From contig JAHFNC010000003.1 in assembly GCA_023267535.1 (NCBI GenBank), positions 380 through 64,379 of the forward strand: a stretch of 64,000 nt of DNA. The letters are read 5' to 3'. Below, in pieces: positions 24,618-54,035 of the stretch. Both the position numbers and the translations under genes were made by a program. This stretch comes from a bacterium (GTDB lineage Bacteria > Patescibacteriota > Minisyncoccia > Phycocordibacterales > UBA5272). A model generated the notes under the pieces. That model was not told where the DNA came from and ran no database searches. It saw nothing but the letters and a program-made list of their open reading frames with translations. Position 1 is the stretch's first letter. Every line of letters begins with the position of its first letter.

Positions 24618-27600
24618 TTAATTCCCACAACTAAGTGTTCTGATACTATCTCTAGTTACTTGTCCTACTTGACCTGTAACTATTAAGTTTTTATCTGTTT
24701 GGAATGATTTTACTGATTGTTCTGTTACTTTTCCGAATATTCCTGTTAAATCTTCTTTGAAGTACCCTCTTTCCTTCAAAAATAGCTGAAGTCTGGTTAC
24801 TTCACCACTTGTTTCTTTGTCTGTTATACCTAACGACATATGATTGTTTAGATTGATGCAGATGTTTTTAGTTGAGGCGCCGAGGACCTGACTTTGAGTA
24901 CTTAGTAGTCCTAGGGAAGCATTGTAGGTCCCTGAACAAATAGTAGGACTACTTCCACAAGTCCATTTATAGAGGCCATTAGCTGGTGCCACCGGACTAT
25001 CAGAAGTAAATGTTGGTTGACCACCATTAGCACAATATGTTTTAGAAGCTAATAAGGTTGTACCTACTGTTTGACCATTAAGAGTTCCACAGGGTGAAGC
25101 GACCTCGGGAGAAACAGTTATATTTATGTATTTGTATGAATACAATCCATTTGAATTATTAACACACCTTATTCCAAATTGAGTATTGGTATATAAATTT
25201 ACAGTCGTTGCTGTACCATTTGTTTGTAAAGGCCCACCAGCACCCAAATTACCACCAGCCGCATAACAAGTAACATAAATGATATCAGTTGAAGGTATTG
25301 TTGTAACCGCCCACGTAATCGTGGCTGTACCGCCAAAAGGAATAGTTGTATCAGGAGATAAAGTAATGGTTGGAGCACCTGACTGACTACTTGTTTGATT
25401 TTGTACGTTAACTGTAAAATACTTTGTTATTGGTTGACTGTTTCCATTTACACATCTAATTCCATATTGAGTTGTAGTATATAGATTTGGCGTTGTCCAC
25501 GTACCACTATTAGCAGGAACATCACCAGATGTTAAATTGCCCCCGGCTACTACACAAGTAGATGTTGTTGGTGAGACAATCCACGTTATTGTTGAAGTGT
25601 TACCAAATGAAATTGTATCTGAGTCTTTGGAGAGGGTTATGGTTGGAGAAGTGGCGGTTACACTATTGGCGACAGGCGCAACTGTATTACCTGAAGCTGA
25701 AGGACTAGCTACAACAGTGAAAGTAAATGGGGTCATGCCGGTACACGAAATTACGTTAATACCTACTGATGCGTTACCAGAACCAGGATTAAAGAAACTT
25801 GAAGCAGGGCCGTTGTTCCATGACCATGTACAATTTACTACAGCACCAGAATTACTAAAAAACCATGTCCATGGTAAAAGAGAGCCGTCTGCGGGTGCAA
25901 CTACAGTGTCACCACTAGATATAACATGACCGCCTAAAGTAACTGAAGCAACAGCCCCTGATGAATTACTTGTAGCTTGAGCCCCAACCACAACATTGAA
26001 AGCAAACTGTGTTCCACCAGGACATGTGTATGTATAGCTACCTGCGTTACTACTATTTACTGTACTTGAATAACCGATTTGGTTGTTGAAGTTCGAATTT
26101 GAAACAAGACTACCATTACCGCCAAGAGTACAAGCCATATTACTACCTGAACTAAAGCCGAGTAATACGGAACCGTTGTAAGGAATAGTGACAGTTCCCC
26201 CGTTAGAGACAGAATTGCCGTTTGCGGTGAGTGAAGGTGCGTGGGTTGAGGAAGTTGTAGTGGTGGTGTTAGGACTACTAACAACATATGTAACTCCGTT
26301 TGAGTTTATGGTACTTCCATCTGATTTATGACAAGTAGCTACTTGAGTAAAGGTACCAGACTGTCCTGCTGTGTTTATAGAAATAACACTGTCTGTGATG
26401 GGTGTGACCACACCACTTATAGGCATAGTACAACTACTTGCTCCATTAGAATGGAAAGTTAAATTAACAGTTTGTCCTGCTGTGGGAGTGGTGGTGTTGA
26501 TGCTTAATGTAGGGGCGGTAGTTTGAGAGCCAGTTACAATGGTAAAAGTAAACGGGGTCATGCCGGCACACGAAATTACATTAACTCCTACTGATGCGAT
26601 ACCATAACTAGGACTAGCTAATCTGGTAGGAGAGCCGTTATTCAATGACCAAGTACAATATGTTCCAGCTCCAAAATCCCATGTCCATGCCATAGGAGAA
26701 CCGTCTGCGGGGCCGGCTATGGTATCGCCATTAGAGATAGGATTAGCGTTCAAAGTAACTACTCTTGAGTTACTCGTAGTCTGAGTCCCCGCCACAACAT
26801 TGAAAGCAAACTGTGTTCCACCAGGACATGTGTATGTATAGCTACCTGCGTTACTACTATTTACTGTACTTGAATAACCGATTTGGTTGTTGAAGTTCGA
26901 ATTTGAAACAAGACTACCATTACCGCCAAGAGTACAAGCCATATTACTACCTGAACTAAAGCCGAGTAATACGGAACCGTTGTAAGGAATAGTGACAGTT
27001 CCCCCGTTAGAGACAGAATTGCCGTTTGCGGTGAGTGAAGGTGCGTGGGTTGAGGAAGTTGTAGTGGTGGTGTTAGGACTACTAACAACATATGTAACTC
27101 CGTTTGAGTTTATGGTACTTCCATCTGATTTATGACAAGTAGCTACTTGAGTAAAGGTACCAGACTGTCCTGCTGTGTTTATAGAAATAACACTGTCTGT
27201 GATGGGTGTGACCACACCACTTATAGGCATAGTACAACTACTTGCTCCATTAGAATGGAAAGTTAAATTAACAGTTTGTCCTGCTGTGGGAGTGGTATTG
27301 TCTAGAGTTAAGGTTGGAGTGGTGATTGTGGTTGAGTTAGTGCTAGTTGAGTTAGTGCTGCCTGTACTTACCGCAACTGGAGTTGCACCATGACAAGAAA
27401 GGTACTTAATCTTTGCTCTGGTATATTGAAAAACATTACCACTTTGAGTTAATGGAAATCCTGTACTAGCTAATTGTTGTCTGTCACTAGCGCTTAAAAT
27501 ATTATCTATATCGCTTGCCAAAACATTTGAATACATTTGAGCCTGAAATGCCATTACAGCTTTTTGGGTTATTTTTCCGAAGACTGCCGGTTGGGTATCT

Positions 27601-27839
27601 GATAGTTGAGCATCTGGGAAAAAACCAGTGTCGTTTAAAAATGACTGTAATTTGTATATATCCCCATTAAGAGTTGTGTCTGACTGACCCTTAGAAAGAT
27701 TAGTTGTCAAAGAAAGACAAGTTGGCGTGTTATTTGTATTCGTTGATGTATCCCCTAACAATTGAGCAGAGGAGATGCTCGGGATAACAAAACTAACAAA
27801 AACAACTGAAACCAATATAGATTTAATATTTTTAAACAT
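24618..27839 (-). CDS. giant secreted surface protein (1073 aa) with N- and C-terminal Cys-bounded PG_binding_1-like domains and internal Ig-like repeats
   Basis: Signal peptide MFKNIKSILVSVVF… The C-terminal CINL…TRLQLFLKERGYF…FQTDKNL…SCGN and N-terminal …IYKLQSFLND…FQAQ… are PG-binding-like. The middle contains a perfect tandem duplication. Confidence 0.65.
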   Translation of the reverse strand: MFKNIKSILVSVVFVSFVIPSISSAQLLGDTSTNTNNTPTCLSLTTNLSKGQSDTTLNGDIYKLQSFLNDTGFFPDAQLSDTQPAVFGKITQKAVMAFQAQMYSNVLASDIDNILSASDRQQLASTGFPLTQSGNVFQYTRAKIKYLSCHGATPVAVSTGSTNSTSTNSTTITTPTLTLDNTTPTAGQTVNLTFHSNGASSCTMPISGVVTPITDSVISINTAGQSGTFTQVATCHKSDGSTINSNGVTYVVSSPNTTTTTSSTHAPSLTANGNSVSNGGTVTIPYNGSVLLGFSSGSNMACTLGGNGSLVSNSNFNNQIGYSSTVNSSNAGSYTYTCPGGTQFAFNVVAGTQTTSNSRVVTLNANPISNGDTIAGPADGSPMAWTWDFGAGTYCTWSLNNGSPTRLASPSYGIASVGVNVISCAGMTPFTFTIVTGSQTTAPTLSINTTTPTAGQTVNLTFHSNGASSCTMPISGVVTPITDSVISINTAGQSGTFTQVATCHKSDGSTINSNGVTYVVSSPNTTTTTSSTHAPSLTANGNSVSNGGTVTIPYNGSVLLGFSSGSNMACTLGGNGSLVSNSNFNNQIGYSSTVNSSNAGSYTYTCPGGTQFAFNVVVGAQATSNSSGAVASVTLGGHVISSGDTVVAPADGSLLPWTWFFSNSGAVVNCTWSWNNGPASSFFNPGSGNASVGINVISCTGMTPFTFTVVASPSASGNTVAPVANSVTATSPTITLSKDSDTISFGNTSTITWIVSPTTSTCVVAGGNLTSGDVPANSGTWTTPNLYTTTQYGIRCVNGNSQPITKYFTVNVQNQTSSQSGAPTITLSPDTTIPFGGTATITWAVTTIPSTDIIYVTCYAAGGNLGAGGPLQTNGTATTVNLYTNTQFGIRCVNNSNGLYSYKYINITVSPEVASPCGTLNGQTVGTTLLASKTYCANGGQPTFTSDSPVAPANGLYKWTCGSSPTICSGTYNASLGLLSTQSQVLGASTKNICINLNNHMSLGITDKETSGEVTRLQLFLKERGYFKEDLTGIFGKVTEQSVKSFQTDKNLIVTGQVGQVTRDSIRTLSCGN
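25990..27295 (-). repeat. intragenic tandem duplication, period ~804 nt, with two 100 %-identical ~500-nt copies (about 25990-26492 and 26793-27295)
   Basis: Identical nucleotide runs offset by ~803 nt. The shadow ORFs 26057..26287 and 26861..27091 are identical. The protein repeats …TPTAGQTVNLTFHSNGASSC…FAFNVV twice. Confidence 0.85.
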
Positions 27840-27950: not shown

Positions 27951-30900
27951 TTAATTTCCACAACTTAACGATTTAATTGTATCTCTTGTTACTTGCCCTA
28001 CTTGGCCAGTAACTATTAAGTTTTTATCTGTTTGGAAGGATTTTACCGCACTTTCTGTTACTTTTCCAAATATTCCTGTTATATCTTCTTTAAAGTATCC
28101 TCTTTCTTTTAGGAAGAGCTGAAGTCTTGTTACTTCGCCACTTGTTTCTTTATCGGTTATACCGAGAGACATATGTTGTCCTAGATTAATACAGATGTTG
28201 GATATGGAAGCGCCGTGAACTGCTCCACAAGAGAAAGTTGGCCAGTTAGAAGCATTGGAACAACCATTGCTGTTACAAGCGTGAACCCATGTGGCATAAC
28301 TATGACCAGCCACACCTGCCCAACTGTGTGAGGTAGAAGTTTCATTATTATTACAATAATTTCCTCCATTTTCAGCGGTAGAACAAGTTCCAGTCCAAAT
28401 ACCTGCGGTTGTGTCATTTATTCTTGTTTGATAGAAAGTAGCACCAGATACTGCCCCCCAACTGATAGAAGCGGATGTTCCGGAACAGGACGGTACATTA
28501 CTACCACTGCTAGCTGGTACAGCTGGAATTGAGTTTGTGGCTGGGGCAGGAGCAGATGCCTGAGCTACTGGGCAAGCTCCGTTTACTGGTGTTTGTCCTT
28601 GTGGACATATTGTTGTCGTACATCCTCCGTTATATATTGCTTGACCTTGACCACACACAGCAAGGGTTGCTGTTACAGCAGTAGATATTCCGGTTGAGCC
28701 GTAACAAGTAACAGTTGTAGTTAATCCATTTGGATAACTAGCACCAGAAAGTGTCATTGAATATGTAGCTGGAGCGTTATTCCAAGGACTTGATCCGTCT
28801 GGATGACTCACGTTACAGTAAGATGCGTTTGCAGTCCAGCCGAAAGTGGCACTTTGTGTAGACAAAATTGGTGAAGCGCTAAAGTTTGGTGGAGTAGTAA
28901 AGCTTGGTTGAGTTGGAGCTGTAGTTGTGGTTGTGGTTGTATTAGCTGGTGCGGAAGCTTGAGCTTGAGGACAAGAGAACGCTGGCCAACTAGAACCATT
29001 GGAGCAACCATTGTTGTTACAAGCTTGAACCCATGTAGTATAACTGTGACCAGCTACGCCTGTCCAAGTATGTGGGTTTATTGTGTCATTATTATTACAA
29101 TAATTACCTCCATTTTCGGAAGTAGAACAACTTCCAGTCCAAGTACCGGCTGTTGTGTCATTTATTCTTGTCATGTAGTAAGTGGCGCCAGTCGCTCCTT
29201 GCCAACCAATAGAAGCTGATGTTCCAGAACAGGATCCACTGCTAGTTGGTACAGCTGGAATAGTATTTGTGACTGTGGCAGTTTGTGCTGTAGCGAAATT
29301 AAGACCAAAACTAAATGTTGCTGAGCCAGTAGTGTTGCTACAAGTATAAGTATAAGTACCTATATTAGTTGAAGCTGTAACTGAAGTTGGTGGTGTTCCT
29401 CCATTTACAGAACATGTTCCTTGCCCTCCTGTATTTCCATATGTTATAGAAGCAGTACTACCAGAAGCGATTTGAGCAGTTCCAGAATTAGAAAGAGGTG
29501 TTCCATTTACAGATACTGTTGGAACAGGAAGTGGTGTTGCTTGGGTATTGGCTACCGTAGCAGGAACATTAATTGTCACAGAACTCCAAGAGCTACATAC
29601 GTTGGTTCCAGCATTACATGCTTTTACATAAGCGGTGTGAGATGTTGCAGATGTCGAAGGAGTAAAACTAGAAAGAGGTATTGACCAGCTTGAAGAAGTA
29701 TTTACAGAACCACCAGCACTAGTACCTGCATCAATAGCATTGTAGTAATCAATTCCAGAAACACGTGACCAAGATACCGTGTAATAAGTACTAGTTACTG
29801 ATGTTGTGAGAGCTGGAGCTGTTGGAGCTGTTGTTGTAACAGGATTTGCTTGAGCTGTTCCTAAATTAACAGTGAGCGCTCCACTTGTAAGTAATGTCCC
29901 TATCGAGTTATATACACTTACTGTATATGCCCCTGAAGGAAGGTCGGTCATTGGTGTCCCCGACCAAGAACCATTAGTAACGGTAAGTGGTCCTGATCCT
30001 GCAATCATACTTCCATTATTAGTATTTATGAAGCTGACGTATACAGTTGATACATTGGCTGTTCCAGAAATTAAAGGACGAGCGGTTGAGGCTGTTTGAG
30101 ATTGTTGACTAAGGGTTGTTGAGTTTGTGTTTGTATTTGCAGTTGTTGATGGTTTTGAAACAGTAATATTTGCTATGCCAAGTATTTGTCCGGTACTACT
30201 AACTAAGCGAGCTTGATAAGTATCTGGACTCCTATTGTCACCCATAGAGTTTTGCCATATATATGAATATGTTGCTTGAGATCCCGCTCCAAGAGTTGTG
30301 CATGCTCCGATTGGACTTGTCGGATATGAAGGGTCTGCTACAGAAGAGCATCGATTAGCATTACCACCTGCATACATAAGTGTATAAGGAGAATTTGGTG
30401 CATTTGCTGGCACTGAACTAGAAAATGTAACTGCGAGTGGAGATACTCCCGATACATTTGATGCTGAAAGATATATTTGTGGAACATCTGTCACAGTAAT
30501 TGGACCACTAACTGCTAGCGGTGTTGAATTAGTTACAAGAGACTGAAGACTACAAGTACCACTGGTATTTGAGCTACAACCAGCTGATGTGTATTTGTGA
30601 AGTGTTGCCGTGTAGATTATTGAAGTTTGTAAATTAGCAGTCCTAACAGCTTGAGCCGCTTGATACACATGTGATGCCCCTGCAGTTGTACAAGAAGTTG
30701 CTGAAGTACAACCCGAAGCAATAACTGATGGCGATGAACCATCTCCCCAATCAATAGCGTAAGCTTCGGAGGCAGTGGTTATTTGTAAATTATTTGCAGT
30801 TAGACTAATAGAAAGCGGAGCAGAGCCAGATGGGGCTGACCCAAACGATGTAACTGTAAGCGTTGGAGTGTTACCTGTATTCTGATTCTGGACTTGAGCT

Positions 30901-32438
30901 GATGTAACCGTCATGATAATTGAATTACTTACACCGTTGCCATTTTTAACATTAAGAACATGACTTCCTGGAGCTATAAGTGAAGGAGCAGGACATCCTA
31001 CACCGACAGATGTTCCCTGTAAACCACAACGTGGTGAAGAATACGTTGGCAAAGTAAATGTAATTGCTGTGCCATTTGAAGAAACAGCAATAGGTTGAAT
31101 AGCATAAAGAGTATTTGCTGTAGAAGAATAACCATCTATATAAACAGTGCTGTCTACTGACGTAAACCCTGAACCATTAATTGTGACATTTGTCCCTATA
31201 CTAGCTGATGTTGGAGAAACAGAACTTATTACGGGTGCATTGGTTTGTAAATTACACCCAACTCCAGTAGTGTTAGTTGTCCCACAACTAGCAACGTTTA
31301 CCGTAACTGACGCTTGATTACTTATTCCATTACTATTTGAAACTTGAATATGATATGTTCCATTATAATTTCTTGGAACAACAATTGTGGTTCCACCATT
31401 TGTGGATGGATAATTTACAGTTCCCATACCTGCTCCGTAATTTACTACATTTGAGGCTGGGTCAAACCTAACACCGGTAATTGTAATATTCCCCTGAGAA
31501 TCACTAGTAACGCTAGTGATTTGTGGTGAGGTTGTTGATGTTGTATTACAACCTATTCTGTTATTAAGAGCTCCACAAGCAGTTACATTTACCAGTATTT
31601 GATTACTTAACCCATTACTATTTACAACTTGAACATAATAATTTCCAGCAGTAGTCACTCCTAAATCTGCGGGATCAAAAATAATTATGGTTCCATTAAG
31701 AAGAGATGAGAAATGGAAATTAGTAGTTGCTTTTCCATAAACATTTACTGAGTTTGATATTGGGTCAAAGTGATTACCGATAATAATATATTTACCCGTA
31801 GCTGTTGGTATGCTTGTGGTATTTAATGACATTAAACTTTCTTGAGTATCAGGATAAATTCCAGAAATAACAGGTGCGCTGTTATTCGTTGGGTTTGTTG
31901 GTGGTGTAGGATTGTCTGGTGTTGTAGGATTTACTGGGTTTGCGATACCGCTTGTACCAGTCGGAGTAGCGTTGTGACAAGAAACATAAGCAATCTTTGC
32001 TCTAGTGTAAACTCCAACATAACCAGTATTGCTCAAAACAAATCCAGTAATAGCTAATTGTTGTCTATCACTAGCGCTAGGAATAAGTGTAGTATCTATG
32101 TCATTTACCGAAACATTTGAGTAAACTTGCACCTGAAAAGACTTTACTGCATTTTGAGTTACTCTACCAAAAGCAGAATATTGTTGTGGTTCTAACGAAA
32201 AGAATGGGTTACCACTAGCATCACTACTATTATTTAAAAATGATTGTAATAAAAATATATTACCGTTAGTTGTTGTATCTGATTGGCCTCTAGCAAGGTT
32301 ACTAGTTAATGAGGTACATTGTGAGACAGATGTGCCACCGGTAGCTGTATCACCTAATGTCTGAGCAAAAGACATAACTGGAATTAAAGAGCCGATAAAA
32401 ACAACTGAAACCAATATAGATTTAATATTTTTAAACAT
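27951..32438 (-). CDS. giant secreted surface protein (1495 aa), paralogous at both ends to the 1073-aa protein
   Basis: The first ~45 nt of coding sequence are identical to the 24618 gene (same signal peptide), the upstream ~100 nt are highly similar, and the C-terminal PG-binding domain is ~90 % identical. The interior has IPT/TIG-like units (P.ISS.SP…G..VTI.G.GF) and Fn3-like units (Y.TRINDTTAG.WTG.CS…NYCNNN…ACN.NGCSN). Confidence 0.65.
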   Translation of the reverse strand: MFKNIKSILVSVVFIGSLIPVMSFAQTLGDTATGGTSVSQCTSLTSNLARGQSDTTTNGNIFLLQSFLNNSSDASGNPFFSLEPQQYSAFGRVTQNAVKSFQVQVYSNVSVNDIDTTLIPSASDRQQLAITGFVLSNTGYVGVYTRAKIAYVSCHNATPTGTSGIANPVNPTTPDNPTPPTNPTNNSAPVISGIYPDTQESLMSLNTTSIPTATGKYIIIGNHFDPISNSVNVYGKATTNFHFSSLLNGTIIIFDPADLGVTTAGNYYVQVVNSNGLSNQILVNVTACGALNNRIGCNTTSTTSPQITSVTSDSQGNITITGVRFDPASNVVNYGAGMGTVNYPSTNGGTTIVVPRNYNGTYHIQVSNSNGISNQASVTVNVASCGTTNTTGVGCNLQTNAPVISSVSPTSASIGTNVTINGSGFTSVDSTVYIDGYSSTANTLYAIQPIAVSSNGTAITFTLPTYSSPRCGLQGTSVGVGCPAPSLIAPGSHVLNVKNGNGVSNSIIMTVTSAQVQNQNTGNTPTLTVTSFGSAPSGSAPLSISLTANNLQITTASEAYAIDWGDGSSPSVIASGCTSATSCTTAGASHVYQAAQAVRTANLQTSIIYTATLHKYTSAGCSSNTSGTCSLQSLVTNSTPLAVSGPITVTDVPQIYLSASNVSGVSPLAVTFSSSVPANAPNSPYTLMYAGGNANRCSSVADPSYPTSPIGACTTLGAGSQATYSYIWQNSMGDNRSPDTYQARLVSSTGQILGIANITVSKPSTTANTNTNSTTLSQQSQTASTARPLISGTANVSTVYVSFINTNNGSMIAGSGPLTVTNGSWSGTPMTDLPSGAYTVSVYNSIGTLLTSGALTVNLGTAQANPVTTTAPTAPALTTSVTSTYYTVSWSRVSGIDYYNAIDAGTSAGGSVNTSSSWSIPLSSFTPSTSATSHTAYVKACNAGTNVCSSWSSVTINVPATVANTQATPLPVPTVSVNGTPLSNSGTAQIASGSTASITYGNTGGQGTCSVNGGTPPTSVTASTNIGTYTYTCSNTTGSATFSFGLNFATAQTATVTNTIPAVPTSSGSCSGTSASIGWQGATGATYYMTRINDTTAGTWTGSCSTSENGGNYCNNNDTINPHTWTGVAGHSYTTWVQACNNNGCSNGSSWPAFSCPQAQASAPANTTTTTTTAPTQPSFTTPPNFSASPILSTQSATFGWTANASYCNVSHPDGSSPWNNAPATYSMTLSGASYPNGLTTTVTCYGSTGISTAVTATLAVCGQGQAIYNGGCTTTICPQGQTPVNGACPVAQASAPAPATNSIPAVPASSGSNVPSCSGTSASISWGAVSGATFYQTRINDTTAGIWTGTCSTAENGGNYCNNNETSTSHSWAGVAGHSYATWVHACNSNGCSNASNWPTFSCGAVHGASISNICINLGQHMSLGITDKETSGEVTRLQLFLKERGYFKEDITGIFGKVTESAVKSFQTDKNLIVTGQVGQVTRDTIKSLSCGN

Positions 32439-41435: not shown

Positions 41436-41822
41436 TTACCAAATTTCGAATAATACTTCACCTCCGACCATCTCCTTACGAGCTTGTTTTTCATTTAGAA
41501 TTCCTTTTGGTGTTGATAGAACACAAATACCATGACCATACTTAACAGGATAAATATCTTTTACTCCAAGATAAATTCTCTTTGATGGTTTAGAAACTCT
41601 CTTCACTCCAGAGATACGAGGTGTTGTTTTGTTTTTATAAAGAAGGATTGCTTCGGCTTTCGCTTTCACACCCTCGGTTACATTAAAAGTCTTAATGTAA
41701 CCCTCATTTTTTAATAGCTCAAGAATTGCTATCTTCATTTTTGATGAAGGAAAAGAAACGCTCTCTTTGTTTACAAAGTTAGCATTCTTAATAGCAATAA
41801 GCATATTTGCAATAGGATCCAT
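41436..41822 (-). CDS. rpsH: 30S ribosomal protein S8
   Basis: S8 family (128 aa). Confidence 0.9.
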   Translation of the reverse strand: MDPIANMLIAIKNANFVNKESVSFPSSKMKIAILELLKNEGYIKTFNVTEGVKAKAEAILLYKNKTTPRISGVKRVSKPSKRIYLGVKDIYPVKYGHGICVLSTPKGILNEKQARKEMVGGEVLFEIW

Positions 41823-41841: not shown

Positions 41842-42027
41842 TTACCACGAAGCCTTTTTAATACCAGGAATCATACCTTCGTTAGCGAGCTCACGAAAGC
41901 ATGTTCTGCAAAGACCAAAATCGCGCATGAACCCGCGCTTTCGACCACATTTAAAGCAACGGTTAACTGTTCTTGTGCTAAACTTTGGCGTTTTTTTACT
42001 ACGGGCGATTACTGATGTTTTTGCCAT
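41842..42027 (-). CDS. rpsN: 30S ribosomal protein S14 type Z (zinc-binding, 61 aa)
   Basis: CxxC…CxxC zinc-ribbon S14 (CFKCGRK…CRTCFRE). Confidence 0.9.
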
Positions 42028-42227: not shown

Positions 42228-45200
42228 CTACCCTTCAAACAAATTAGAAATATTTATCTTTATTGTCTTTGTTCTAAAGTCAGGGGCTCCCGTACAATAG
42301 AGTTTAAATATCGCTCCATGATTTAATATGAATGATTTTTTACCCAAAGCGTGAGTCTGACCATTTGGCGGAGTAACTAGTGCGGTTGTAATCTTTCTTG
42401 AACCGTATTGATCATTGGTGTCAGTGTTCATGTTAGCTATTCCAAAATTAATTGCATTTATTTCAGCAATTTGATCAGCGGTTGGAGATGAAGACGGAGA
42501 AGAGGCTATCATAGTACAACCAGCTATTGGATCTTGTATATCCCAAGAAACAGTTACGCTGTCTCCAGACTGAATACTTGTTGGTGAAGCAATTAAATTT
42601 ATGAGAGATGCACAATTATTTTCAACCCAAACTTGAGTGTTATCCCAACAAGTTTTTCTTGGATGAATATATGTTGCTTGACAACTGGTACTATTTCCAC
42701 CATTTAGTCCACCGCAAGACCATGTCCATCCATTTGATGCTCCATCTGTTGGATTGTTCAATGTTACATAGGACGGTGTGGTTCCTTTATCACACTGTGA
42801 GGTTATGTCGGTTGCGTACGTATAAGAACCTCCGGAGGAACTACCACAAGCCCCGTCTTGTTCTGAAATTACAGTTATAAGAGTGCTGTCTGTCCAACGA
42901 CAAGTACCGTTTTGATTGTGATCATTATCGCAAGCAGAGAATTTAACTCTATATGTTCCTAATTGTGTCGGAATAAAACTTGCGTTCATATTTTTATTTC
43001 CTGTAAAAGTAAAGTTTGCATTATTTGTATAATTATATGTCCACGAACCATCTGGATTTTGAACATCAAAATGAAGTTCAGTCATATCGGCGTTACTGTC
43101 TGATGCCGTAGATGAGAAGCTTATTGATTGACCGATTTGATGTGATACTTGGTTTGTATTTGGCACAATACTAACAGTTGGCACTAAATCAAAATATGTC
43201 GCCGAACAAGATACAGGCGCTCCTTGTCCAAGGCATTGCCATGACCATGGACCAAATGTTGGACCACCAGGTGGATTTGAACTTGGTGTCGTGTATTGAG
43301 AGCAGAGATTTACTTGAGGAGCAGATGGGAATGAACCTCCGCCAGATAATCCACAAGCAATATTTTGAGTAGCATTACACATACTTGAATTTACAGCTCC
43401 AATAGAACAATACCAACTCCACGCTCCAGTCGCAGATGGTGTTGAATATGCATTACAAAGATTTGTGGTTGGTGGTTGATCATAACTTGTTCCATTTGCT
43501 GACCCACAACCTGGAGCTCTACACGCTACCCCATCCCACACTGAGCCAGCTGTACACGACGCAGAAACAGATGTCGACATATGAACGAAAGATCCGTTTT
43601 TAATTGTGAAGGAATCCCCTCCGTACTTAACCGTGACGGGTTGGTTGGTTCCGTTGGCGGAAGTATAGAGACTAGCGCCTGCACCATTTACAATGTTTGG
43701 TGACGAGAAATGAACTGAAGACCAGTCAAGATAAACAGTACAAGAACTAGCATTAACAGATATCAAGCAAGAACCCTGTCTTGCAGAAATATTTCCTGAA
43801 GCCACGTAAACTGGCGTACTAGCAGATGTTCCTGAGCAAGTAATAGTGTATGTTGTATCTGATAACGGTGTCACGGATACTGAGCTAGCTATGTTTGCAG
43901 TGACAGCACCGACTCCGTTTATGCTACAAGATGAAGTTTGTGATGATGAATATGAAAGTAGAGATGATTGACTGTAGTTTATGGTAGAAGGATTGGCCGA
44001 TATTGAAGACGCAGAATTAGCTGCAAAAGATGCGGTGATTGTATGTCCCCACATTACGTTACCACTATCACTAAATGTTGGAAATGTGTAGTTTGATATA
44101 GCTCCTTGCTCTACATAATCAACCTGCACAGATGTAGTGTGGTATCCGCCACTTGGTGAAATACTAAATGCTTGAGTTGCCGAACTATCAACAAGTCTGT
44201 TTCCTAATGGAGAAATTGAACCACCTCCGCCTGCTGAAGAAGTTAAATGATAAGAACCATAAAACTTATTACCGTTCCATTTACAGAAAATCCAAGAATT
44301 CGGATTACTATTTTGATTAAGCGTACAACTCGCTGTTGCGTCAGCTAAAGATACGGTTGAAGTCATTGACCCCCCTCCTTCAATATACATAGTATATGTC
44401 CCAAGTGCTGGCGCTTGGAAAATAGTATTTCCGTTCCATGTACACATAATTGAATGGGTTGGATTATTGTTGTAATTTAATTGGCAGTTTGCTAATGCTT
44501 CTGGCAGAGTATAATGATTACCGGCAAGGTCAATATTAGAAGAAATAAAAGGTGATCCGCTTCCATCAAAATATCCTCTGTAATCTCCGAGCGCTGGAGC
44601 TGAATAAATCTGAGTTCCGTTCCATGTACACATAATAGCGTGAGTTGGATTATTGTTGCGGTTAAGTTGGCAGTTTGATAATGCGGCCGCTTGAGTAATA
44701 TTAGGTGTCTGTATAAACCATGAACCATCAAAATACCCTATATATGTCCCCAGTGGGTCAGAACAAACTCCACCACTCACTACTTGTCCAGAAGGACAGA
44801 CGGTTACTGTTACATATTGCCAACCACTACTAAGATTTGCTGTTGAATTACTACATCCGAAGGCATATTGTGTACTAGAGATTAGGCTTGGTGTAGTGTA
44901 AGTGAACGTAGTATTTATTGGTTCGTTTGCATTTATTCCAGACAAGTTACAGCTGGTGGCACCTGATGAGGTCATAGTGAGTACAGCTGTTGAATTATAT
45001 GTAATGGGGTTCGGCGAAGCAGATATGGTTGCTTTAATACAGGTTGGGAAATTCCCCGCCCCACTTGCCCCATTTGAACAAGTAGCATTAGTTGAGCAAC
45101 TAGCTGTTGACCCTCCATTTGTTCCAGGACAACTCCAAGTGTAACCATATGTTGGACCATTACCTGTGGGACCAGCAAGATTGGTGAAAGTAGACACACT

Positions 45201-47387
45201 CTGTGTGTCAGCCACACAGAGACCTTGAAGTTTTGGACTTGACCAACTTGCATAATTATTTTGATCTCTAGTGACATTGTCCCAAGTTGAATTGGCACAT
45301 AGTCCGTTCACGGGAGGACTGGTAACCGTAATAGTTTGTGTATTGGATTGAGTTCCAAACCATTTGACACCTTCTTGAACCATTTTCCAGTTAAATGAAT
45401 ATGTCCCAGGAGAATTAGGAGCCCTCATTTGTGTTTGTGCTCCTGAAAGAGTGAGAGATTGGCCTGGGCCGACACTACTTGGTAAATAAACTCTATTTAT
45501 TCCAAAATAAGTAAGATCATCTTGAGGAGTCCAGATACCGACTTTATATCCAGCCCCTGGGGACCAAGTTGTCACACCTGTATTATTTATGGTAATTGTC
45601 GGGGAAAATACCTGACCAACAGTAAGCGATGAAGGGAATGAAATAGTTACATTTCCATCGTCTGACACAACAGTATAAGGAATATAGAGCCATTGAGTAG
45701 CGACATTAGATCCAAGACCAATATGAGCTTGAAAAGCTATGGAATATGACCCAGGAGAATTTGGCGCTGTAAAATTAACGTTCGGTCCAGTCCACAATCG
45801 ACTTGGGTCTGGGTCGTAAAATCCACACGGAGTCCAACCGGCCCACTCTGGAGACAAAAGACAGGTATCTCCGCTACCATTAACATTACCTGTAACAACT
45901 AAGTTACCACCAGTACCAGTATAATTTTGAATATTGCCAGCTACTGTTACTGTCTCCCCTGGAGCATAAACAAATGGCGACGCTTTATTTACCACCCAAA
46001 CATTAGCATAAACGGGACCAGGTAAATAAAAGGTGTCGGCTTTAACTTTATTTGTACTTAAACTAAATAAAACAAAGAGAATAATTATTGATATAAAAGG
46101 AAATTTCTTTTTATATTTCAAATGAAGGAGGACTATTGATCCTACAAAAATAAAAGTGATGATGGCATACCAGTACCAAAAAATACCCGTAGTCTTTTTC
46201 GGGGAAAGATTAGAAGAGGATGTTATTGTAAAATCTCTAGAGTCCAAAACACCGTATTTAGAATCTAAAAATTTAACATTTATTTGCGGGTTAACACAAT
46301 CATTAGTGACAGTAAAAGGTATTTGTTCAAAATAGTTAACGGAGTCTAACGTTTTCGTAAATTGAGAAACACAACTATTTCCATTCTTATCCTTAATTGT
46401 TATTGAGACAGAAGCGTTGTTAAGTTTTGTTCCACTTGCCTTTCGTAGATTAGAAAATAAATCAATTGATGGTAGCCATAAAATAGAAAGTTTTGCTTTG
46501 TCTCCTGCACCATATACATCTTTATCTAAAGTAACATTCTGTATGGTTGCACTGGCCCCACGCAATACATAATTAAAATTAACAGTGTTCGTATTTTTCA
46601 AATCTCCAGTATTTTTAAAAATTAAAGACACCGTATAAGCTTGTGGGTTGGTTGCTTTTGGTAAATCTATATCTACTACCCTCTTTTCTTTGGAGGACAA
46701 AACTATTTGCGATTCACTGCTTTGATTTGTATTAATTGTATTACCGTAAACTCCATGCGCTTTTGTAATAAACTCTGGGATTAAAGTTATGTTATTTGAT
46801 GTTTTATTTTCAATCGTACAGTGAGCAACCAAACTTTCGGTGGACGCAATGTCTACACCTCGACTGGTGACATAGTGTGGTTGGTCTTTTTCATCTTTAA
46901 CAGTTAAATAACAACTAGTCGGATCAACATATGCAAAATATTCTACTTTTGATTTTAAATTTAATTTACCTATAACCCCTCTACCAAAAGAAAACCCATT
47001 ACTATTTCCAGCCGAAAGCCACAAGTTATATGTGCCAGATAATTCGGAAGGGGCTGTATAAGTTATTGTTTTATGAAGAGACGCATTTTCTCCTAAGTTT
47101 ATAGATTCTCCATAAACCTGTTCATCAACTATTGTGGATGTACCTTTTTTATCCTGAGTTAAGATCACTCCGTATTTTACATCTGGTTGAATACCGACTC
47201 GATTAGAAATATCAAAAGATATTTTTACAATGTTATCCTGCTGTGTAAAAGTGGCGTTGGCTACATTAACTGTAGCTACAACTATTGCATTACTAGCTGG
47301 AGTACTTGTTCCTTGAGCGAAAGCAAAAGAAGGGAAAAGTAAAAACCACACAGAAGAGATCAGAAGCCTTTTGAAAAATAAAAACAT
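42228..47387 (-). CDS. giant surface protein (1719 aa) with an internal membrane hairpin, tandem 55-aa repeats and a C-terminal module shared with the adjacent 948-aa protein
   Basis: Signal peptide and a ~390-aa domain, then …SPKKTTG-IFWYWYAIITFIFVGSIVLL-HLKYKKK-FPFISIIILFVLFSLS-TNKVKA…, followed by ~1270 aa with the W..PG.Y.F.W.M.QE.V.WFG domain, three GYFDGS…NCQLN.NNNPTH.IMCTWNG repeats, and C-terminal …KKSFILNHGAIFKLYC…IKINISNLFEG. Confidence 0.6.
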   Translation of the reverse strand: MFLFFKRLLISSVWFLLFPSFAFAQGTSTPASNAIVVATVNVANATFTQQDNIVKISFDISNRVGIQPDVKYGVILTQDKKGTSTIVDEQVYGESINLGENASLHKTITYTAPSELSGTYNLWLSAGNSNGFSFGRGVIGKLNLKSKVEYFAYVDPTSCYLTVKDEKDQPHYVTSRGVDIASTESLVAHCTIENKTSNNITLIPEFITKAHGVYGNTINTNQSSESQIVLSSKEKRVVDIDLPKATNPQAYTVSLIFKNTGDLKNTNTVNFNYVLRGASATIQNVTLDKDVYGAGDKAKLSILWLPSIDLFSNLRKASGTKLNNASVSITIKDKNGNSCVSQFTKTLDSVNYFEQIPFTVTNDCVNPQINVKFLDSKYGVLDSRDFTITSSSNLSPKKTTGIFWYWYAIITFIFVGSIVLLHLKYKKKFPFISIIILFVLFSLSTNKVKADTFYLPGPVYANVWVVNKASPFVYAPGETVTVAGNIQNYTGTGGNLVVTGNVNGSGDTCLLSPEWAGWTPCGFYDPDPSRLWTGPNVNFTAPNSPGSYSIAFQAHIGLGSNVATQWLYIPYTVVSDDGNVTISFPSSLTVGQVFSPTITINNTGVTTWSPGAGYKVGIWTPQDDLTYFGINRVYLPSSVGPGQSLTLSGAQTQMRAPNSPGTYSFNWKMVQEGVKWFGTQSNTQTITVTSPPVNGLCANSTWDNVTRDQNNYASWSSPKLQGLCVADTQSVSTFTNLAGPTGNGPTYGYTWSCPGTNGGSTASCSTNATCSNGASGAGNFPTCIKATISASPNPITYNSTAVLTMTSSGATSCNLSGINANEPINTTFTYTTPSLISSTQYAFGCSNSTANLSSGWQYVTVTVCPSGQVVSGGVCSDPLGTYIGYFDGSWFIQTPNITQAAALSNCQLNRNNNPTHAIMCTWNGTQIYSAPALGDYRGYFDGSGSPFISSNIDLAGNHYTLPEALANCQLNYNNNPTHSIMCTWNGNTIFQAPALGTYTMYIEGGGSMTSTVSLADATASCTLNQNSNPNSWIFCKWNGNKFYGSYHLTSSAGGGGSISPLGNRLVDSSATQAFSISPSGGYHTTSVQVDYVEQGAISNYTFPTFSDSGNVMWGHTITASFAANSASSISANPSTINYSQSSLLSYSSSQTSSCSINGVGAVTANIASSVSVTPLSDTTYTITCSGTSASTPVYVASGNISARQGSCLISVNASSCTVYLDWSSVHFSSPNIVNGAGASLYTSANGTNQPVTVKYGGDSFTIKNGSFVHMSTSVSASCTAGSVWDGVACRAPGCGSANGTSYDQPPTTNLCNAYSTPSATGAWSWYCSIGAVNSSMCNATQNIACGLSGGGSFPSAPQVNLCSQYTTPSSNPPGGPTFGPWSWQCLGQGAPVSCSATYFDLVPTVSIVPNTNQVSHQIGQSISFSSTASDSNADMTELHFDVQNPDGSWTYNYTNNANFTFTGNKNMNASFIPTQLGTYRVKFSACDNDHNQNGTCRWTDSTLITVISEQDGACGSSSGGSYTYATDITSQCDKGTTPSYVTLNNPTDGASNGWTWSCGGLNGGNSTSCQATYIHPRKTCWDNTQVWVENNCASLINLIASPTSIQSGDSVTVSWDIQDPIAGCTMIASSPSSSPTADQIAEINAINFGIANMNTDTNDQYGSRKITTALVTPPNGQTHALGKKSFILNHGAIFKLYCTGAPDFRTKTIKINISNLFEG

Positions 47388-47460: not shown

Positions 47461-50307
47461 CTACCCCTCAAACACATTAGCAATATTTATTCTAATCTTT
47501 CTTCCTTGAGAAGAGTTACTACAATGTAAGTCAAATACAGTTGAGTGATTTAAATTAAATGATTTCTTACCTGTTGCTGTCCCACCTGATGGTGTAGTGA
47601 TTGCTTTATTTATCCCAACAGTGGTGCTGTTGTCTATGGTTTCTGTATTAATTTTTTGATTTATTTGAGCTATCTCAGCTATTTGAGCAGATGTTGGATT
47701 AGGGAAAGGAGACGATGCCGATAGTCCACAAGTATTATTTGTTCCTTCTATTATCCAAGAAAGTGTTGTGCTTTGGCCTTGGTCTATGGTTTGCGGTGTA
47801 GCGGTTAGACTAGTTATATGAGGGGGACAAGATTGTGTAACCCTAACACTTGATTGGTCCCAACAAGTTTTAAACTCTGGAGGGCAGCTACTAGTTACAG
47901 GTATTTCGTCACCATTCCAACAGGTTTGAGTATCAATAGTACAACTGCCACCATTTGGATGATTGAAACTTGGACAAGAACAAGACGGATAAAAAGCTAT
48001 ATCTAATCCATTTGGACAAGATGGTATAACATGTGGAATTACTACAGGAGTATTATCTACAGGAACTGGACAAGATTGAGATAAAGGAATAACGCTTCCA
48101 TCAGAGCAGGTCTGAGTTGTTAGAGGAATTATACAAATTGGCTGTGATCCAGAATATCCAGAAGGACAAGGACATCCAGAGGTAGATGGAGCAATTGTAC
48201 ATATAGCAAGGTTGATAATACTGACGCATTTACCCGAGATTGCATTCCAGATAGAGCCAAAGGTACATGTTGGAGTAATTGTTACTTGGTCTAATAGAAC
48301 TGCATTGTTATATAAATAGTAAGTAGTGTTTGAATAAGTTCCAGATACTGAAGCGCTTTGTGGTCCACTATTATTTCCAGTAAATACAGTTCCAGATGGA
48401 TTATTTCTTGTTATGGCAGACGTTCCTACTGGATTAGTTGTACTCCAACTTAAATTAACATTACAAGATGATTGGTCGGTATCTATAGTACAAGACTGTG
48501 AAGAAGAAGTGATTGTGCCAGAGAGAGGGTTAGTTGCTGGTGTCACTGGATTAACATTCGGGTTTGTACATACCCCATTAACCACCGTTTGATCTTGAGC
48601 ACAAACATTTACTGTTAGATATTGCCAACCAGTACTGGTACTATTATTTGTATTACTACACCCAAAAGCATATTGCTGACTTGAAGTTAGGTTACCGGTG
48701 GATTTAGTTACTTTCTGATTCGGAGTTATGTTTGGGTCTATGCCAGAAAGATTACAGCTTGTTGCTCCTAATGAGTCTAGCGTGAGGGTGGCGGACGAAC
48801 CATTTTCAATTGGAGTTTTGTCCACTGTAATCGTAGCAGAAATAGAAGTCGGAACGCAACTAGACCCACTTGGGACTTTGCCAAGTGAACAAGTACAAGA
48901 TGGATAAGTAGCTATATCTAATCCGTTAGCACAACCACAACTCATATTACTAGGTCCGACCCAACTGTTGCCAATCTGGCATTTGAAAGATACTGAGCCA
49001 GTATAGTTCGGAGCAAGAGTTTGGTCGTTTGTAGTAGTTTGTGTTTGACCAACTGGTATGTTAGATAAATTAACTGAAGCTTTGCAAGGACCTGCTGAAG
49101 AATTTCCTGTAAAGGTTGAACTTGTCCACGAATTAGTCCCATTAGCCGAGCAGGTGCCAGGGTTCCCCTGCACACTAACACTATCCAAAACATTTCCACC
49201 ACTATCTTTGAGAGTAAAGATAGTTGGTGTTTGAGAAATCCAAGGAGCAGTTTGAGGACCTTTTACAGCGTTAGCAAATAGAGCATTGTTAGGTGATATG
49301 GTTACCGTAGCACTTGGCGTATCAGAAGTATCCCAACTTATTACTGAAGAACAGTTAACTTGAGAACCTGTCATATTACAAGGATTTGGGGATGCTGAAA
49401 TGTGTCCAGTTGGCTTAGCGACAACTACTGGAGTTACAGTAATACTTTGCGCACATGTATCACCAAACCACTCAACATTCTCTTGTAGCATTCTCCAAGA
49501 GAATGAATAAGTTCCTGGTGTAGACGGAGCCGTGAGAGAAGGAGCAAATATAGCCGAGGAGCCTGGTGAAACTGAATTAGTTAACGACCAAGGAACCCTA
49601 CCTAATCCCCAAGTATTATTATTTTCTGGATTCTGACTACCAAGTGAATACGCACCCTGTGTCCAATCTGTAGTTCCATCATTAGTCATAACAATTGAAG
49701 GCTGAAAAGTCTGTCCAGCTACAATAGAAAATGGTGCTGAGATACTATGACAAGAAGCAATATTTACTTTAGCCATTTCTACACAAGTGATAGTTCCCCA
49801 AACTACAGAAGCGTTATCTTGCCCAGCCCTTGGGTAATACATCTCTTGCATAAAAGTTCCGGCAGGGCAGGTTATAAGAACATCATTCCAAGTGTAATAA
49901 TTCTGAACAGCGGTTGCAGAAACAGGGTTGGCAGTTTTAGCACCGTAACAAGTAGCGCTGTTATTCTGAGCTCCTTGATTATCCCACCAAGCTCTTGGGA
50001 AATATACCCCCGACATAATTCCCGAAGGACAATTATATCCGTACGAAGCTCCTTCCGAATTACCAGCACTTACCCCAGTAACAGTAGCCGGAGCACAAGT
50101 CCCTGACACATCCATTGTGTCTTGGTTATCTAACCCTCCACGAGGAAAATATATGCTTGTCATAAAAGTTCCAGCCGGACAATCAAAACTAGGACCCGAG
50201 GCCTTCACTTTTACTCCCCCACTAAAAAAACTAATCAAAACAAAGAATATTAACAGAAGTGATTTTGATATATTTAGCAGAGAAAAAATTTTATTTTTAG
50301 AAATCAT
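47461..50307 (-). CDS. giant secreted protein (948 aa) with three N-terminal Cys-bounded ~40-aa repeats and a paralogous C-terminal module (…IRINIANVFEG)
   Basis: CPAGTFM…YFPRGGLDNQ…C repeated three times. The middle and C-terminal domains align to the 1719-aa protein (ATSCNLSGI…QYAFGCSN…GWQY.TV.VC; NSPGTYSFSWRMLQENVEWFG). Confidence 0.6.
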   Translation of the reverse strand: MISKNKIFSLLNISKSLLLIFFVLISFFSGGVKVKASGPSFDCPAGTFMTSIYFPRGGLDNQDTMDVSGTCAPATVTGVSAGNSEGASYGYNCPSGIMSGVYFPRAWWDNQGAQNNSATCYGAKTANPVSATAVQNYYTWNDVLITCPAGTFMQEMYYPRAGQDNASVVWGTITCVEMAKVNIASCHSISAPFSIVAGQTFQPSIVMTNDGTTDWTQGAYSLGSQNPENNNTWGLGRVPWSLTNSVSPGSSAIFAPSLTAPSTPGTYSFSWRMLQENVEWFGDTCAQSITVTPVVVAKPTGHISASPNPCNMTGSQVNCSSVISWDTSDTPSATVTISPNNALFANAVKGPQTAPWISQTPTIFTLKDSGGNVLDSVSVQGNPGTCSANGTNSWTSSTFTGNSSAGPCKASVNLSNIPVGQTQTTTNDQTLAPNYTGSVSFKCQIGNSWVGPSNMSCGCANGLDIATYPSCTCSLGKVPSGSSCVPTSISATITVDKTPIENGSSATLTLDSLGATSCNLSGIDPNITPNQKVTKSTGNLTSSQQYAFGCSNTNNSTSTGWQYLTVNVCAQDQTVVNGVCTNPNVNPVTPATNPLSGTITSSSQSCTIDTDQSSCNVNLSWSTTNPVGTSAITRNNPSGTVFTGNNSGPQSASVSGTYSNTTYYLYNNAVLLDQVTITPTCTFGSIWNAISGKCVSIINLAICTIAPSTSGCPCPSGYSGSQPICIIPLTTQTCSDGSVIPLSQSCPVPVDNTPVVIPHVIPSCPNGLDIAFYPSCSCPSFNHPNGGSCTIDTQTCWNGDEIPVTSSCPPEFKTCWDQSSVRVTQSCPPHITSLTATPQTIDQGQSTTLSWIIEGTNNTCGLSASSPFPNPTSAQIAEIAQINQKINTETIDNSTTVGINKAITTPSGGTATGKKSFNLNHSTVFDLHCSNSSQGRKIRINIANVFEG

Positions 50308-53435: not shown

Positions 53436-54035
53436 TCAATTTTTTTCTAATTCCACTATTGTTTCCTGTAGAAAATATTTGAAAAAGATTATTGCTAGTC
53501 TCCCAGTTTTTTTTGGTTTGAAATCAACATCTACATCAGCTGGGGTTCTGATTTTGTGGTCTAGACCAGAGAAAGAGATTGTCAGACCAAGTTTCTCAAT
53601 TTCTTCTTTTGCTTTCTCTGACCAAGCCTGAAGTTTTGTATGTTTATCGTAAAGCCTTATTTGTTCCTTCAAAAAGGCGGCACAGGTTTTACTATCTACG
53701 AAAGAAGGATTTTCTTGAAAATCATTGAAACCATTTATGCGATTGGTCACTTCAAGAAAAATCTTCCAAACAGGGGCACGATAACGAAACTCTTCCCCTT
53801 TTCTAAGAAATTGCCTAGGCTCTCTTGAGTCCCACGCCGGAGTAAACGGGAAATTATTTTCCATTTCATCAAATACTCGCCAAAGATAATTAGCGCTATT
53901 TATTCCAACTGAATCTTCGATGCCGTTTAAGATGTCCAGTAAACACTTACAAGAAAACAAAACGTCTACCTTGTAACCAAGGTCTGTCTGTATATGTCTA
54001 GGGAAAATACTCATAACCTTCTCCTCAAAAAACAA
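53436..54035 (-). CDS. hypothetical cytoplasmic protein (199 aa) inserted between rplX and rplE
   Basis: Intact ORF without TM segments or recognisable motifs. It has its own upstream terminator and 3'-element. Confidence 0.4.
   Translation of the reverse strand: MFFEEKVMSIFPRHIQTDLGYKVDVLFSCKCLLDILNGIEDSVGINSANYLWRVFDEMENNFPFTPAWDSREPRQFLRKGEEFRYRAPVWKIFLEVTNRINGFNDFQENPSFVDSKTCAAFLKEQIRLYDKHTKLQAWSEKAKEEIEKLGLTISFSGLDHKIRTPADVDVDFKPKKTGRLAIIFFKYFLQETIVELEKN

Follow-up and report, generated by a model that had tools for sequence, protein, structure and literature searches.

The gene described here lies on the minus strand of a 64,000-nucleotide stretch of a Patescibacteriota contig (JAHFNC010000003.1 of assembly GCA_023267535.1; the whole stretch is referred to as the window) and encodes a secreted protein of 1719 amino acids. 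It runs from an ATG at position 47387 to position 42228 and sits within the ribosomal-protein supercluster, between the genes for L5 and S14. The reading frame combines two modules, A and B, at a membrane hairpin in which the anchor of A is followed by a second signal peptide, that of B. This joint is conserved across a large family of Patescibacteria proteins, some of which are encoded as two adjacent genes, and on balance we favor a reading in which the internal signal peptide is still cleaved.

A hydrophobic hairpin in the middle of a secreted protein

A Kyte-Doolittle scan of the 1719-residue protein finds three hydrophobic segments and no more, namely the N-terminal signal peptide and two transmembrane segments (TM1 and TM2) that form the hairpin; their positions and those of the other parts are given in Table 1. 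The first-pass annotation, made from the DNA letters, had described the reading frame with its internal hairpin, the loop HLKYKKK, the junction TNKVKA/DTF and an in-frame TTG for the leucine of the loop. All of these are borne out by the hydropathy scan and the sequence, with the additions that the strand is minus and that TM1 measures 20 residues, not 21. TM1 is the highest hydropathy peak of the protein and aligns with the C-terminal transmembrane segment of stand-alone A proteins. TM2 consists of an h-region of 16 residues (FPFISIIILFVLFSLS, residues 429-444) and a c-region of six (TNKVKA), which leads into DTF. At the N-terminus, the A-x-A/Q pattern of the first signal peptide is kept in the family alignment, and residues 2-16 are modeled as a helix by AlphaFold. 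The translation product is one chain with a predicted out-in-out topology. Gene calling yields the identical 1719-residue protein on contigs of at least two further assemblies (ENA ERZ27279977 and Logan SRR14366796), which makes an error in the reads or their assembly unlikely. Nor is the hairpin a hydrophobic stretch that arose by chance, since the window's other large secreted proteins (1040, 1073, 1495, 1511, 948 and 493 residues) have a hydrophobic segment at the N-terminus only and none has an internal hairpin, while more than 130 family members conserve it.

An AlphaFold model of residues 1-700, built on an 80-sequence alignment, reached a predicted template modeling score (pTM) of 0.74. 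In this model, module A (residues 33-390) forms three beta-sandwich domains with a predicted local distance difference test score (pLDDT) mostly at or above 90, helices span residues 403-425 and 432-441, and the B core forms a beta-sandwich over residues 450-573 with pLDDT values of 60-87, except for a low-confidence loop at residues 512-533. An earlier model of 585 residues from 22 sequences had given a poor B core, which the 80-sequence alignment improved. In a Foldseek search with the 585-residue model, module A was nearest to arrays of macroglobulin (MG) domains in complement C3 and alpha-2-macroglobulin (E of about 1e-9, TM-score of about 0.2), and the Pfam MG2 model matches residues 285-353 below its cut-off (18.5 against 32.8 bits). 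Module A also contains four invariant cysteines (C159, C190, C339 and C364), which fit an extracytoplasmic, disulfide-bonded module.

Table 1. Parts of the 1719-residue protein and its upstream neighbor; nucleotide positions are those of the window, minus strand (Ig, immunoglobulin)
Feature	Residues	Nucleotides	Description
N-terminal Sec-type signal peptide	1-24	47316..47387	MFLFFKRLLISSVWFLLFPSFAFA/QGT, ending SFAFA/QGT; hydropathy peak
Module A ectodomain	25-401	46185..47315	Three tandem MG/Ig-like beta-sandwich domains, then polar linker
TM1, stop-transfer anchor of module A	402-421	46125..46184	IFWYWYAIITFIFVGSIVLL; predicted N-out, C-in
Predicted cytoplasmic basic loop	422-428	46104..46124	HLKYKKK; contains TTG codon 423 at 46119-46121
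TM2, retained signal peptide of module B	429-450	46038..46103	Aligns with free-standing B signal peptides
Predicted signal peptidase I site	Ala450/Asp451	between 46038 and 46037	V-K-A/D; spanning tryptic peptide ADTFYLPGPVYANVWVVNK, semi-tryptic counterpart DTFYLPGPVYANVWVVNK
Module B conserved core	451-575	45663..46037	Beta-sandwich, starts DTF; motif (V)NLxKxxYxPGE in family consensus
NBR1-type Ig-like domain	582-680	45348..45644	Pfam PF16158 N_BRCA1_IG, 31.3 bits against a cut-off of 28
Variable Cys-rich distal part of module B	681-1719 and stop codon	42228..45347	Three CG..G..C..WxWxC repeats
Upstream 948-residue secreted protein		47461..50307	Signal peptide GGVKVKA/SGP; without module A

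A family of fused and split genes

A homology search for relatives of module A, with residues 1-480 of the window protein as the query, retrieved 22 proteins from metagenome bins of Parcubacteria type; they share 24-49% identity with the query and fall into two architectures. Nine of the 22 are 412-452 residues long and end in a transmembrane segment and a short basic tail (for example, ILAAYFRHKKNQNES). Another nine, of 582-834 residues, continue through a basic loop and a second hydrophobic segment ending in (A/V)xA to D-T-F and a VNLNKxxYxPGE domain. A scan of GTDB species genomes, seeded with a closer 10-sequence alignment since a 19-sequence alignment was too diverse as a seed, gave 57 loci, with fusion through the same hairpin at about 45 and the split arrangement at about 10; all are in Patescibacteria bins, the non-Patescibacteria names that some of these bins bear being taken as mislabels. 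About a quarter of the sampled family members are two abutting or overlapping genes. On a larger scale, a profile search of 1.84 billion cluster representatives retrieved 2310 at E <= 1e-3 and 1165 at E <= 1e-30, and among 139 new top representatives the pair of transmembrane segments scored above threshold in 133 and was recognized by eye in two more. The hairpin is kept in more than 130 family members, which are representatives of clusters at 50% identity.

Total length within the family ranges from 553 to 1887 residues, with the variable region distal to the B core, and in the window protein the match to the family profile extends to about residue 609 (entry P0023). No Pfam or NCBIfam model exists for module A or for the B core, and literature searches found no description of this family. 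Module A defines a large, uncharacterized and unnamed Patescibacteria family in which the fused form is the majority. Since the continuous hairpin is the majority state of the family, the window gene represents a fusion of long standing that has been maintained, rather than two genes joined in error. The first-pass annotation had wavered between a fusion of two surface-protein genes and a single two-domain protein, for which a continuous hairpin in the orthologues was to be the sign. Each expectation found something to stand on, as separate A and B genes do exist elsewhere and the continuous arrangement nevertheless prevails.

The split loci reveal the origin of the joint. There are eleven of them, three obtained by contig look-ups and eight by the genome scan, and at each one a separate A gene of 365-486 codons encodes a C-terminal transmembrane segment with a basic tail, and a B gene starts between -20 and +35 nucleotides from the A stop codon. 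The B proteins of these loci carry a signal peptide ending in (A/V)xA, followed by (D/A)T(F/Y/V) and then the same conserved core. Residues 427-553 of the window protein can be aligned to residues 4-127 of a free-standing B protein, that of locus L007 (29% identity, E = 1e-6 in a single comparison), which makes TM2 a homologue of a true N-terminal signal peptide. With the hairpin and B core (residues 422-692) as the query, a word-indexed search gave no matches because the B core is too divergent for that tool; the profile search and pairwise BLASTP recovered the relationship. In addition, the 948-residue protein encoded upstream is a colinear paralogue (BLASTP) of residues ~580-1719 of the 1719-residue protein and has its own signal peptide, so that the whole stretch beyond the hairpin resembles an ordinary secreted protein. 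The eleven split loci, the L007 alignment and this paralogue together uphold the earlier proposal that the joint is a C-terminal anchor run into the signal peptide of a second protein.

The two gene arrangements have interconverted repeatedly, because parsimony on a neighbor-joining tree of module A (54 fused and 17 split members) needs 10 state changes (7-13 in bootstrap replicates; median of 16 with shuffled labels). The window protein groups with other fused members on this tree. The coding sequence of the joint is Lys-rich and contains A-runs (AAATATAAAAAGAAA) in AT-rich genomes, with out-of-frame stop codons adjoining. Switching between the fused and split states is plausibly helped by this A-run-rich joint, where an indel of one or two nucleotides would flip the state.

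Two further cases bear on the range of the joint. In P0050, a protein of 1887 residues, a joint of TM1, KNKK and a TM2 ending in TFA/QNN connects an A module to a second A module, and the hairpin joint is therefore not confined to A-B pairs. At locus L033, from position 10626 onward on the plus strand, a 1341-residue reading frame with the same succession of TM1, basic loop, TM2 and AxA lies directly downstream of a family member and is probably a tandem paralogue. The idea that hairpin joints are common in secreted proteins of Patescibacteria found no support. In a sample of 150 large reading frames with an N-terminal hydrophobic segment, taken from the fetched loci and the window and hence centered on family loci, a single internal hairpin occurs in 41 reading frames, every one of them at a family locus and one of them being the L033 frame.

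Fate of the internal signal peptide

To count conservation at the joint, 132 fused members were aligned with MAFFT in the ordinary way, without anchoring on the cleavage site. Position -3 (Val448) is Ala in 84 members and Val in 35, position -2 (Lys449) varies among K, R, S and H, and position -1 (Ala450) is Ala in 129 and Gly in the other 3. On the far side, +1 (Asp451) is Asp in 91 members, +2 (Thr452) is Thr in 105 and +3 (Phe453) is aromatic or aliphatic. The loop has a median length of 6 residues and a median net charge of +4, with K/R near-invariant at alignment columns 424, 426 and 427. TM2 has the charged n-region (KYKKK), the h-region, the short polar c-region and the small residues at -1 and -3 of a Sec-type signal peptide; its location is internal, starting from residue 424, and N-terminal in the split relatives only. 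The selection acting on the joint looks like recognition by signal peptidase, given a signal peptide of n-, h- and c-regions that follows the (-3, -1) rule and is preserved in long-fused lineages.

With moderate confidence, we propose that TM2 of the fused A-B reading frame still acts as a signal peptide, which would be cut after Ala450 to give two mature proteins. The N-terminal signal peptide would export module A, with its MG/Ig-like and probably disulfide-bonded domains, until transfer is halted by TM1. The short Lys/Arg loop would remain cytoplasmic, and TM2, as the original signal peptide of B, would restart translocation for the ~1270 residues of module B. Signal peptidase I would then most likely cut after V448-K-A450. 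The outcome would be the same mature proteins as in the split form, except that A would be held in the membrane by a hairpin and not by a single helix. Mature B would start at Asp451 (DTF) and be retained at the surface presumably by binding to A, an association suggested by their strict co-encoding and fusion.

Three observations weigh against this proposal. No anchor to the wall or the membrane can be recognized in mature B, and that it stays at the surface is thus an assumption. In the AlphaFold model, residues 450-456, beginning with Ala450-Asp-Thr-Phe, form the first beta-strand of the B core, and part of the conservation at -1 and at +1 to +3 could be structural and owe nothing to signal peptidase. 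Finally, no signal peptidase I gene turned up within the window, where this gene was not specifically searched for.

The first two observations bear on the strongest alternative, in which TM2 is not cleaved and a single mature polypeptide displays two extracytoplasmic modules on a membrane hairpin, with TM2 tethering module B. Such a protein would agree with the continuous reading frame and the conserved hairpin. The B core starts right after the c-region, which could hinder the peptidase and could alone explain the conservation of A-D-T-F, and module B lacks another anchor, whereas several neighboring giant proteins carry PG_binding_1. However, the -3 position, which the modeled strand of the B core does not include, is occupied by Ala or Val in 119 of the 132 members while -2 is free, and this is the classic signal peptidase I pattern. 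The split relatives make B with a normal cleavable signal peptide and thus do not tether it to the membrane, and frequent switching between arrangements is more easily tolerated if the mature products are identical. We regard an uncleaved TM2 as a real possibility, although a distinctly less probable one than cleavage.

Internal initiation would also yield a separate B protein. The first-pass annotation had suggested that the TTG at codon 423 could serve as a start, from which B would be made with an ordinary N-terminal signal peptide. The codon does align with the Met of stand-alone B proteins (LKYKKKFPF against MKNIQKIKF or MNLKNFKIL). No Shine-Dalgarno sequence was found at the gene starts of the window (for example, those at 41822, 47387 and 50307), nor at 44 of 45 family gene starts in other Patescibacteria loci, so Shine-Dalgarno analysis of the internal start is uninformative, and in a lineage that does not use such sites a missing one is no counter-argument. 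Other observations speak against the suggestion. The column of codon 423 is a gap in 117 of the 132 members, and in 14 of 45 fused genes the loop offers no in-frame ATG, GTG or TTG at all. The TTG is preceded by transmembrane-coding sequence (GGATCAATAGTCCTCCTTCAT) and not by an AT-rich leader, whereas 37 of 38 large reading frames of the window start with ATG behind such leaders; no ATG occurs in any frame of the window loop (46104..46124). In any case, ribosomes from the first ATG would read through to the fusion. Internal initiation is not the mechanism of the family and is unlikely in the window protein, and we give this explanation as a whole very little weight.

An artefact or decay, in which an indel or recent mutation removed the stop codon between two genes and left a fusion without biological meaning, has in its favor that the joint is A-rich, that out-of-frame stop codons adjoin and that a single indel would switch the state. 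It is nonetheless highly improbable, as the identical protein occurs in independent assemblies, the nearest relatives on the tree are also fused, and fused forms with a conserved joint predominate both in 57 genomes and among over 130 diverse representatives. Just as implausible is the sortase- or exosortase-type anchor raised at first pass, by which TM1 would belong to a C-terminal sorting signal and module A would be cut and linked to the wall: the polar linker, transmembrane segment and basic cluster do have the tripartite look, but no LPXTG (LP.T[GAS]), PEP, PGF or comparable motif is present in the window protein, just 1 of 199 family members has an LPXTG near TM1, the 16 positions leading up to TM1 show no conservation, and 1290 residues follow the basic tail, which is C-terminal in the split A proteins only.

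If the cleaved signal peptide is taken as the starting point, a broader view can be entertained, which we hold to be rather doubtful. Fusion through a cleaved signal peptide might serve as a 'protein-level operon' that ensures 1:1 synthesis and side-by-side translocation of a surface complex, in cells where, without Shine-Dalgarno sites, a downstream gene would otherwise depend on termination-reinitiation; signal peptidase I would then act as the polyprotein protease. The fused/split switching and the A-hairpin-A protein P0050 might, on the same speculative footing, capture moments of a general strategy, neutral in topology, by which envelope proteins are concatenated.

If cleavage is confirmed, no other natural set of bacterial precursors with processing at an internal signal peptide would come near this family in size, and its hundreds of diverse sequences, together with the split controls, could be used to learn the rules of internal cleavage sites and hairpin insertion. 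The family also represents an unnamed, widespread two-part surface protein of Patescibacteria, with a conserved membrane-proximal A and a variable Cys-rich distal B, a layout expected of an attachment or host-contact structure in episymbionts. For annotation, the locus carries a warning that a gene fusion can lie behind a transmembrane hairpin found midway along a giant secreted protein, and that a single reading frame may correspond to two mature proteins.

Neighboring genes and known systems

The gene order around the locus is L5, a 493-residue protein (PG_binding_1), a 193-residue protein, the 948-residue paralogue, the 1719-residue protein, S14 (41842-42027), S8, L6, L18, S5 and L15. The supercluster as a whole (S10-spc-alpha type; 23157-63226, minus) is broken three times by genes for large Cys-rich secreted proteins: those of 493, 193, 948 and 1719 residues between L5 and S14, those of 1511 and 158 residues between L15 and SecY, and those of 1495 and 1073 residues between SecY and Adk. 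Several of the inserted large secreted proteins end in a PG_binding_1 domain. The 1073- and 1495-residue giants adjoin (24618-27839 and 27951-32438, minus) and have near-identical N-termini (MFKNIKSILVSVVF) and near-identical C-terminal PG_binding_1 ends (DKNLIVTGQVGQVTRD.I..LSCGN), and the pair looks like a recent tandem duplication with divergent middles. Elsewhere, a 904-residue protein with weak TraG/VirD4-type signatures (TrwB_AAD_bind, TraG-D_C) is encoded immediately behind Map, where the ribosomal cluster ends (20411-23125, minus), and a 199-residue reading frame without a Pfam match (53436-54035, minus; 192 residues in other assemblies) lies inside the ribosomal operon between L24 and L5.

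The distal part of module B shares several elements with its neighbor and with other family members. The Ig region at residues 582-680 is 40% identical to residues 188-302 of the 948-residue protein, and a middle domain is common to both proteins at 53% identity. Their C-terminal ~170 residues are also homologous (42228-42750 and 47461-47980, minus) and may be a shared module or signal. Both proteins terminate in N(I/V)(S/A)N(L/V)FEG, behind which there is no transmembrane segment, and some family members end similarly, in IPIFEEQ or GSFIEF. The small Cys-rich repeat CG..G...C....WxWxC, which occurs at residues 1294-1327, 1345-1385 and 1514-1558 (window 43100-43500 and ~42830, minus), is also found in other family members such as P0011, and no Pfam model matches it.

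Among known systems, alpha-2-macroglobulin and complement C3 share tandem beta-sandwiches with module A, but module A has only three domains and the resemblance is one of fold class only; a motif scan of the window protein found no thioester motif (CxEQ). A likeness in layout is offered by the streptococcal Zmp/IgA1 proteases, which have a signal peptide and two hydrophobic segments predicted to span the membrane before a large extracellular part, and whose second hydrophobic segment has been proposed to serve as another signal peptide, with a further signal peptidase site (PMC3518915). These proteins (pneumococcal IgA1 protease as well as ZmpB, ZmpC and ZmpD) have no sequence relationship to the window protein and carry an LPXTG before the hairpin, a short N-terminal segment and an HEXXH protease domain (PMC3518915). 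The window protein, in contrast, has neither LPXTG nor HEXXH, places a folded module of 370 residues before the hairpin and has relatives with separate genes.

That an internal segment can be cleaved was reportedly seen by Nilsson and von Heijne in the early 1990s with Escherichia coli Lep constructs, which signal peptidase I is said to have cut after an internal N-in/C-out hydrophobic segment situated behind a helical hairpin, given the (-3, -1) rule and the geometry of the c-region. These constructs were artificial and show that cleavage is possible, not that it occurs in the window protein. A natural parallel is the Bradyrhizobium japonicum fbcH reading frame, which Thony-Meyer, James and Hennecke reportedly described in PNAS in 1991 as the precursor of cytochromes b and c1, encoded by separate genes elsewhere. 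Its c1 signal peptide is said to be internal, following a transmembrane segment, and to be cut by signal peptidase to release two cooperating mature proteins. The family described here resembles fbcH in that its halves are separate adjacent genes at the eleven split loci and in that a transmembrane segment, by its predicted topology, returns the chain to the cytoplasm before the internal signal peptide. The upstream partner in fbcH, however, is a polytopic respiratory protein and not a single-anchor ectodomain, and fbcH is a single lineage-specific case without sequence relationship to the window protein. Fusion with a retained signal peptide is ordinary in principle, and the present family is unusual in its scale and in its repeated fusion and fission.

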